Under the pieces are notes generated by a model. It ran no database searches and was not told the origin of the DNA. It saw only the letters and a list, made by a program, of their open reading frames with translations. Below, piece by piece: positions 4,777 to 5,322 of a DNA stretch of 5,322 nucleotides. Source of the DNA: a virus. Lineage: Duplodnaviria; Heunggongvirae; Uroviricota; Caudoviricetes. Every line of letters begins with the position of its first letter. The stretch's first letter is position 1. Position numbers and translations under genes: made by a program. The DNA is taken from positions 1-5,322 of IMG/VR virus record IMGVR_UViG_2703718820_000005, one strand, 5' to 3'.

Positions 4777-5322
4777 ATGGCAAAGCTGGACTGGAAAAAG
4801 CTGGAGCAGGCATTCCGACGCGAACATGCCGAAACGGGAATAACATTACTGGACTGGTGCCGGAAGAAAAAGATTAATTACAACACCGCCAGAACCCGTA
4901 TAAAAATGGGCAAAATCGATCATGAAATTGATCATAAAACCGATCATGAAATCGATCATGACATCTCAGATGAAGAACCCTGCAATGACGCGGGTTCCGG
5001 CGATGAAAAATGCGCCAAAAACTCTGAAAAAAACTGCGCAAATTCGGCAGAAACGAAACGCAACAGCAGATCGGGCAATCCTCACCCCGTTGCCCGGTTT
5101 AGCGACCGTAACACCCACGCCGTAAGACACCGTGGATATGCGAAGTATCTTGAGGCAGATAACCTCATGGATGATGCGTCCGACATGGTGCTGTTCGATG
5201 AACTGGTGTTCACCCGGGCCCGCGCACTTTCAGTAACTAAGGCACTTAAAGGGATGTTCGCCGACCTGGAAGAGGCAACTGACGTGGAAACCCGTGTTGC
5301 TCTTTACGACAAAATACTCAAA
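4777..5322 (+). CDS. Terminase small subunit (TerS), 5' portion; the ORF runs off the 3' end of the window
   Basis: ATG at 4777; frame 1 is open to the window end. N-terminal HTH-like segment GITLLDWCRKKKINYNTARTRIK, then RSGNPHPVARF...HAVRHRGYAKYL, matching the conserved pattern of small terminase subunits of Gifsy/Stx-like lambdoid phages as I recall it. It sits directly after the lysis cassette, as expected. Confidence 0.65.
   Translation, partial: MAKLDWKKLEQAFRREHAETGITLLDWCRKKKINYNTARTRIKMGKIDHEIDHKTDHEIDHDISDEEPCNDAGSGDEKCAKNSEKNCANSAETKRNSRSGNPHPVARFSDRNTHAVRHRGYAKYLEADNLMDDASDMVLFDELVFTRARALSVTKALKGMFADLEEATDVETRVALYDKILK
4915..4962 (+). repeat. Tandem 12-bp repeat x4 (ATCGATCATGAA-like), in frame within terS, each unit containing a GATC Dam site
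   Basis: Units at 4915-4926 (atcgatcatgaa), 4927-4938 (attgatcataaa), 4939-4950 (accgatcatgaa) and 4951-4962 (atcgatcatgac). They encode IDHE-IDHK-TDHE-IDHD. Confidence 0.85.

Follow-up and report, generated by a model that had tools for sequence, protein, structure and literature searches.

The small terminase subunits (TerS) of headful phages of the P22, Sf6 and SPP1 types comprise an N-terminal helix-turn-helix (HTH) part and an oligomerisation domain, and their packaging signal (pac) lies in or near their own gene (PMC9611059). Recognition of pac by these proteins is still described as unclear, binding in vitro being mostly weak or non-specific (PMC9611059). In phage P1, pac occupies nt 181–357 of pacA and includes seven TGATCA/G hexamers in two clusters of four and three (at nt 193, 200, 212 and 227, and at nt 323, 335 and 346) that flank the cut, together with an IHF site. 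The hexamers are read in two frames, encoding IDH, NDQ, GDH and DDH. They are the binding sites of the pacase, their methylation by Dam controls cleavage, and their synonymous recoding cuts P1 packaging about ninefold (PMC10028697). The presence of pac sites inside terS and the GATC hexamers of P1 are, then, already known.

The DNA considered here is a 5,322-nt stretch from a tailed-phage genome (IMG/VR record IMGVR_UViG_2703718820_000005, hereafter the window), in which an array of four GATC-bearing units lies within the terS gene. We propose, with a probability of roughly 0.6, that this array (4915–4962) is the part of pac that TerS recognises in the 933W lineage. The array resembles P1 pac in several respects: in both cases the site is inside the small-subunit gene directly after the N-terminal HTH part (from gene nt 138 in the window and from nt 193 in pacA), the GATC hexamers recur some 7–15 bp apart and encode Asp-His or Asp-Gln dipeptides, and both P1 and 933W are generalized transducers, with headful packaging established for P1 and probable for 933W. 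There are also differences. Where P1 has two clusters, the window has a single group of four hexamers that recur every 12 bp exactly, and where P1 has TGATCA/G the window has one TGATCA and three CGATCA, a match at the level of GATC hexamers and not to the exact P1 consensus. A search of 4700–5322 for the IHF consensus WATCAANNNNTTR found none, and the two-cluster arrangement of P1 was not seen, the next GATC after the array (at 5069) being present in the window allele only. PacA has 397 amino acids and a different C-terminal part, the C-terminal parts of PacA and 933W-type TerS being unrelated. Cleavage, pacase binding and the effect of methylation have been demonstrated in P1, whereas for the array in the window they are predictions.

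In P22, Sf6 and SPP1-type phages, likewise, the recognition signal is found within or beside the gene for the protein by which it is read. The pac of P22 consists of one asymmetric 22-bp sequence, in contrast to the phased hexamer array of the window, and there is no sequence similarity, Pfam Terminase_2 and other TerS families giving no match. A parallel outside packaging is offered by the ori iterons in gene O of lambda and 933W, which are also short repeated sites within a gene for a DNA-binding protein, with site and specificity co-evolving as a cassette, but which serve replication initiation, involve another protein family and have an 18-bp repeat rather than 6 bp within 12. In the literature that could be searched, no pac has been mapped for 933W-type Stx phages, and family-wide hexamer arrays with helix-linked classes appear to be undescribed.

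The window and its small terminase gene

The window covers the late region of a 933W-like (Sepvirinae; Shiga-toxin-phage-type) lambdoid prophage. Its final 723 nt match 222 phage records at 90–99% identity, nearly all of them Stx-converting phages, and are also matched in 386 of 5426 complete E. coli genomes; the E. coli genome NZ_CP077646.1 matches at 100%. The genes are as follows.

First in the window: nanS-p-type esterase gene, 3' part
2026–2241: holin gene (lysis genes)
2839–3372: lysozyme gene (lysis genes)
3931–4482: Rz (lysis genes)
4235–4420: Rz1 (lysis genes)
4777–5322, + strand: terS (small terminase), 5' 546 nt, read by translation and cut off by the end of the window

Compared with 933W, the window is without ant between R and Rz (window 3373–3930) and without bor between Rz and terS (window 4483–4776). 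Three small ORFs downstream of the lysozyme gene (3450–3662, 3643–3915 and 3840–4013) may encode membrane proteins, and a degenerate period-20 repeat is found at 1705–1756 within the ORF at 1515–1949 (TRF: 2.7 copies, 74% matches, 17% indels).

Sequence comparison identifies the gene starting at ATG 4777 as that of the small terminase, because its 933W orthologue, 95% identical at the DNA level to the part of terS in the window, gives a full-length profile match to PHROG 370 (E 4.8e-125) and because terL and the portal gene come next in relatives (the order terS-terL-portal is seen in the 933W, GER2 and Salmonella loci). No significant family came out of Pfam scans of TerS and TerL, Terminase_2 and the other TerS families being unmatched. 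In an AlphaFold model built on a 99%-identical protein, helices at residues 6–20, 24–31 and 35–41 form a three-helix HTH (pLDDT 75–88), residues 45–106 are of low confidence (pLDDT <50) and long helices extend over residues 130–238 (pLDDT >90). As modelled, TerS is made up of an N-terminal HTH, a flexible linker and a helical, putatively oligomerising domain. Foldseek comparison of the model with the PDB gave generic coiled coils only, none at E <= 0.001.

4792–4899, + strand: N-terminal three-helix HTH-coding part, aa 6–41 (from AlphaFold, and from hhalign to P1 PacA aa 3–44)
4879–4899, + strand: putative recognition helix, aa 35–41, YNTARTR (class-specific residues fall in helix 3)
4915–4962, no strand assigned: four 12-bp units, proposed TerS recognition array of pac (gene nt 138–185)
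4915–5094, + strand: predicted disordered linker, approximately aa 47–106 (pLDDT <50 in residues 45–106)

The HTH provides a link to P1. Residues 3–44 of PacA align with the TerS HTH at residues 6–47 (hhalign E 7e-5, probability 63%), the match being limited to the N-terminal ~45–100 residues, and the two proteins give weak reciprocal profile matches (1.9e-4 for PacA, PHROG 1711, and 3.1e-5 for 933W TerS, PHROG 370). These values suggest that the N-terminal domain of PacA may be remotely homologous to the HTH of 933W-type TerS.

A phased GATC array after the HTH-coding part

TRF reports a single array here, at 4913–4965, with a period of 12, 4.4 copies, 82% matches and a score of 78. The four units at 4915–4962 read ATCGATCATGAA / ATTGATCATAAA / ACCGATCATGAA / ATCGATCATGAC and contain YGATCA hexamers at 4917–4922 (CGATCA), 4929–4934 (TGATCA), 4941–4946 (CGATCA) and 4953–4958 (CGATCA), with the GATC sites at 4918, 4930, 4942 and 4954. 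The frame from ATG 4777 reads ...KMGKIDHEIDHKTDHEIDHDISDEE..., giving the repeat peptide IDHE-IDHK-TDHE-IDHD. An earlier note on this DNA had described four GATC-bearing 12-bp units, one of them reading TGATCAT, that encode these tetrapeptides in the terS frame just after an HTH-like domain, and each of these points holds: the units by TRF and by direct reading (TGATCAT is in the second), the peptide by translation and the placement by the AlphaFold model, in which the HTH helices end at residue 41 and the repeat lies within the low-confidence residues 45–106.

GATC is scarce in this DNA. The window as a whole has eight GATC sites against 17.9 expected, so that half of them sit in the array, and the site is also under-represented in the complete 933W genome (157 against about 240–266 expected), of which the array is the densest GATC cluster, with four in 40 nt where other 40-nt windows have at most two. 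The clustering follows from the tandem repeat, and 'more than chance' therefore applies to the repeat and not to four independent GATC sites. For SeqA, at least two GATC are needed within some three helical turns, a spacing that four GATC at 12-bp intervals provide.

Several further hexamers lie near the array.

4689–4694, no strand assigned: isolated CGATCA in A-rich context, 83 nt upstream of the terS ATG at 4777
4907–4912, no strand assigned: TGGGCA, degenerate positional homologue of the first TGCGCA of relatives (window AAA ATG GGC AAA)
5011–5016, no strand assigned: TGCGCC (TGCGCA in 933W-like relatives; one base from phi296)
5035–5040, no strand assigned: TGCGCA, inside conserved N-C-A codons

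The upstream CGATCA may be an outlying site: a YGATCA is found at -100 to -1 of terS in 10 of the 16 sequences of the GATC class defined below and is absent from the Salmonella locus L117. The equivalent of 4907–4912 in relatives is a TGCGCA at gene nt +130 (CTG CGC AAA). The hexamers at 5011–5016 and 5035–5040, 24 bp apart and downstream of the GATC array, are both TGCGCA in most 933W-like phages and may be what is left of an ancestral array or may belong to the site as a second component, although that at 5035–5040 may be kept only as protein, 'NCA' being conserved in the protein alignment.

An RNA element was sought at the same place. The Rfam scan of 4500–5322 gave nothing at E <= 1, and a hairpin reading of the array was set aside since the single strand of 4900–4980 folds no better than shuffled sequences (z -0.7); a function of the motif at the mRNA level is conceivable.

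Comparison of the repeat among homologous terS genes, which the earlier note had suggested, gave mostly four copies but not an invariant number. Four units are present in about 95% of the 386 E. coli genomes with the region. Of 387 complete E. coli records, 17 fall in the 90–95% identity band; those sampled are 12 bp shorter, and the others keep four units. The variants are as follows.

Three units: LC645409-type Stx2a phages
Five units: L069 and P0024
Seven, two and one units: P0001, P0016 and P0020, respectively

Copy number thus ranges from 1 to 7 among near-identical TerS proteins: the repeat is able to slip, yet four units are the norm. That variants with 1, 2, 3, 5 and 7 units exist suggests that four sites may not be strictly required. 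Frequent change of copy number among close relatives, as expected of a contingency locus, was not found, and since the units are in frame there can be no on/off switching. In about 30 Stx2a prophage records an IS3-family element splits terS directly after a three-unit array ('...GATCATGACATCT|GAACCGCCCCGGG...'), for example in L003 (LC727843.1) from about 3172, the equivalent position in the window being just past 4966; such prophages presumably cannot package alone.

Variation of this kind is what would be expected if the repeat were a low-complexity, slippage-prone stretch of a disordered linker, in which GATC arises simply from the pairing of Asp (GAT) and His (CAT) codons and does nothing as DNA. 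The predicted disorder of residues 45–106 agrees with this explanation, as does the fact that the linker, repeat included, is the most variable stretch of the TerS protein alignment; the retention of four copies in the great majority of genomes speaks against it. The same disorder is compatible with the pac reading, the linker being predicted to tolerate an embedded DNA signal. Related terS genes bear on the choice between the two.

Conservation as DNA in related terS genes

We gathered terS loci from genomes and viral contigs and read the codons that follow the HTH in 71 non-redundant terS 5' regions. A hexamer array is found at the equivalent position in all 71, and the type of hexamer partitions without exception according to the sequence of helix 3.

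Helix ARRY or ARRH, n = 49: TGCGCA, 3–7 copies within gene nt 115–260
Helix AKRY, n = 6 (Pectobacterium, Brenneria, Symbiopectobacterium): TTCGCA, five copies, with no TGCGCA
Helix ARTR (933W lineage) or ARTQ (Salmonella L117 and L118), n = 16: YGATCA at an exact 12-bp period

The TGCGCA class is carried by E. coli GER2-type, Citrobacter, Brenneria, Serratia, Yersinia, Aeromonas and Xenorhabdus prophages. Among 15 representatives with 81 sites the extended consensus is aAAAnTGCGCArAa and the spacings are mostly 9–14 bp. All three reading frames are used, as xxT GCG CAr (x-Ala-Gln/His), GTG CGC Axx (Val-Arg) and TGC GCA (Cys-Ala), the 81 sites being distributed over frames 0, 1 and 2 as 8, 17 and 56 and falling in 25 tripeptide contexts. 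When synonymous codons were resampled, 0.2–1.0 TGCGCA were expected against 3–7 observed; the observed count was reached in none of 5000 resamples for 13 of the 15 representatives, with p values of 0.0006 and 0.0026 for the other two. The same procedure applied to TTCGCA gave none of 5000 in six of six sequences. The 49 non-redundant loci contain about 347 TGCGCA copies, of which 287 are concentrated at +100 to +299 of terS and about 60 are scattered over the other ~3.6 kb per locus. In the Yersinia/Serratia group, none of the 12 third-codon positions within hexamers is variable, compared with 20 of 28 spacer positions and 27 of 40 positions where the HTH is encoded. For both the TGCGCA and the TTCGCA class, these results place the constraint at the level of DNA.

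The GATC class shares a common register (gene nt 141, 153, 165 and so on) with 3–5 GATC per array, but here the codons themselves are less telling: GATC is observed 3–5 times against 2.2–3.3 expected from the DH/DQ peptide (p 0.13–0.46). This is a point in favour of the slippage-prone linker. Since a DH/DQ peptide nearly forces GATC, the argument at the DNA level for this class rests on the sister classes and on the interchange of His and Gln. The Salmonella arrays encode SDQK-SDHK-NDHE-SDQK-NDHN, in which the third residue is now His, now Gln and the residue before Asp is not that of 933W, while GATCA, the pyrimidine before it and the period are kept. Throughout the class the peptide is variable (DH or DQ, preceded by I/T or by S/N), yet YGATCA and its 12-bp period persist, and the Asp codon is GAT in 17 of 17 units. 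A linker that merely slips would account for the copy numbers (1, 2, 3, 4, 5 and 7) and the disorder, as the earlier note had allowed, but leaves unexplained a motif that relatives keep as DNA at the equivalent position, in three frames and with frozen synonymous sites, and we regard it as unlikely.

The repeat might instead be maintained for its peptide, either as a His/Asp-rich metal-binding element or as a spacer whose charge pattern determines how far the HTH can reach. The regular (I/T)DH(E/K/D) tetrapeptide period and its acidic surroundings would suit such a role, and related proteins are also periodic over four residues (xAQK, SDQK). Metal binding by His and Asp was rejected on two grounds, the interchange of His and Gln and the unrelated peptides of the sister classes. 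More generally, the replacement of His by Gln in Salmonella and the Ala-Gln, Val-Arg or Cys-Ala of the other classes have no chemistry in common, and the periodicity is accounted for by the DNA hexamers, which makes a functional peptide very improbable indeed.

Two TerS proteins (L121 and L122) that have the common C-terminal domain joined to an unrelated N-terminal domain have no such hexamer array. Arrays read in three frames, frozen synonymous sites and the missing array of these two proteins all argue, from sequence comparison, that the conserved object is the DNA and not the His/Asp peptide, the peptide being a by-product of hexamers placed in a tolerant linker. The linker-coding part of L121 (Salmonella, P0068) has a two-unit 12-bp repeat of its own at ~2170–2200 (GGACGGACGGAT / GGACGGACGAAA, encoding GRTDGRTK), which may be the cognate site of its different N-terminal HTH.

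Packaging, Dam methylation and specificity

Evidence on the packaging mode of 933W is indirect. The phage performs generalized transduction and the ends of its virion DNA could not be sequenced, which together indicate headful packaging (PMC3752737). TerL phylogenies list a 'headful (933W type)' group (PMC7317114). On the other side, PhageTerm applied to one 933W-like phage returned a 'Mu-like' call, that is, no fixed ends (PMC7946995). Our search of the literature on 933W-like phages found such indirect statements and that one PhageTerm call, with no mapped pac, termini or pac cleavage, and a search for TGCGCA together with terminase or pac gave nothing relevant. Two possible hints were discarded: the PV1894xx records end in terS merely since the genomes were opened at the terL start codon, and the ends of IMG/VR contigs within terS were taken for assembly breaks and not used as termini.

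The suggestion of the earlier note that the array is a recognition element of the P1 pac type is borne out in part, by the array and its conserved position across the family, the constraint on DNA in the TGCGCA and TTCGCA classes, the association of hexamer with helix, and the probable remote homology with PacA combined with equal placement of pac in the gene. All three rival explanations, the two set out above and the SeqA element discussed below, fail on the sister lineages, which have unrelated peptides and yet a phased DNA hexamer at the equivalent spot. We envisage that TerS oligomerises through its C-terminal helices and that the tethered HTH domains would bind successive YGATCA hexamers, about one helical turn apart; bound TerS would then load TerL, which would cut nearby, so that headful packaging starts. 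Recognition or cleavage may depend on the methylation state, as at P1 pac. For this phage we infer each element of the scheme, namely TerS binding, pac function, the cutting site and control by Dam.

Dam control of the array is plausible by analogy, since all of its sites are Dam targets, both host and phage Dam are present and P1 offers a precedent. In 933W (L123) a 175-aa Dam of the T1/HP1 type is encoded at 16823–17350 in the nin region (PF05869, E 1e-64). No Dam gene was seen within 10 kb upstream of the two Salmonella loci, an uninformative result. As the TGCGCA and TTCGCA classes are without GATC, methylation control cannot be the ancestral logic of the arrays.

GATC sites that are methylated by Dam could also serve SeqA, which would bind them when hemimethylated and so time replication, late-operon transcription or prophage stability rather than packaging. 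An array of four GATC that is the densest cluster of a GATC-depleted genome, in a phage with its own Dam, speaks for such an element, and stable lysogeny by 933W reportedly requires the host Dam (Murphy et al. 2008, as cited in PMC3342100). Most relatives, however, have TGCGCA or TTCGCA in the equivalent array and lack GATC there, so SeqA binding cannot be the common function, and no replication origin or promoter is annotated at the array, the ori iterons of 933W being in gene O. We consider a Dam/SeqA element quite improbable as the main function, although SeqA binding could occur as a side effect.

If the pac reading is correct, the association of hexamer type with helix-3 type raises the question of specificity. 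Between 933W-type and GER2-type terS, identity is at least 87% over nt 1–60, falls to 33–57% over nt 91–270 and returns to at least 90% over nt 271–390; from the low identity between conserved flanks, helices 2–3 and the array form one divergent cassette. With such a cassette (about gene nt 60–270) between near-identical flanks, the specificity of the protein and its DNA target would move together. It is possible, though on balance doubtful, that packaging specificity travels with HTH helices 2–3, the hexamer array and the linker as one portable cassette, of which three or more natural specificities exist, and that the switch to GATC brought Dam control. The association could also be plain linkage, given that helix and array are only ~20–80 bp apart and that there have been few independent switches (about 3–4). 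A simple residue-to-base code is also contradicted by PacA, whose helix ARRY goes with binding to TGATCA/G.

Were the cassette real, its specificities would be TGCGCA with ARRY/H, TTCGCA with AKRY and YGATCA with ART(R/Q), a readable code for the choice of pac site by a small terminase, and the switch to a GATC hexamer in the Shiga-toxin phage lineage would put the initiation of packaging under host and phage Dam, as in P1. If Dam gates the site, phage-encoded Dam would be linked to virion production. This TerS family is in any case an unusually legible one, with short phased hexamers, three specificity classes tied to one helix and natural domain swaps, and it offers a tractable system for TerS–pac recognition in which helix-swap and site-swap designs follow directly. 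Its carriers are 933W-type Shiga-toxin converters and generalized transducers, for which a known pac would help to predict the host or plasmid DNA that is mobilised and would allow pac-based packaging vectors or pac-defective strains to be made, as has been done for P1.

A second region of mosaicism lies further downstream. A patch of ~50 bp at 5057–5110 is wholly unlike 933W and phi296, encoding NSRSGNPHPVARFSD and not IRGSRLLPPSNAFSQ, and the window allele brings with it the extra GATC at 5069. Each of the two alleles is found repeatedly in TerS of E. coli, Salmonella and Citrobacter, which makes the patch a further mosaic cassette, placed where the linker gives way to the C-terminal domain.
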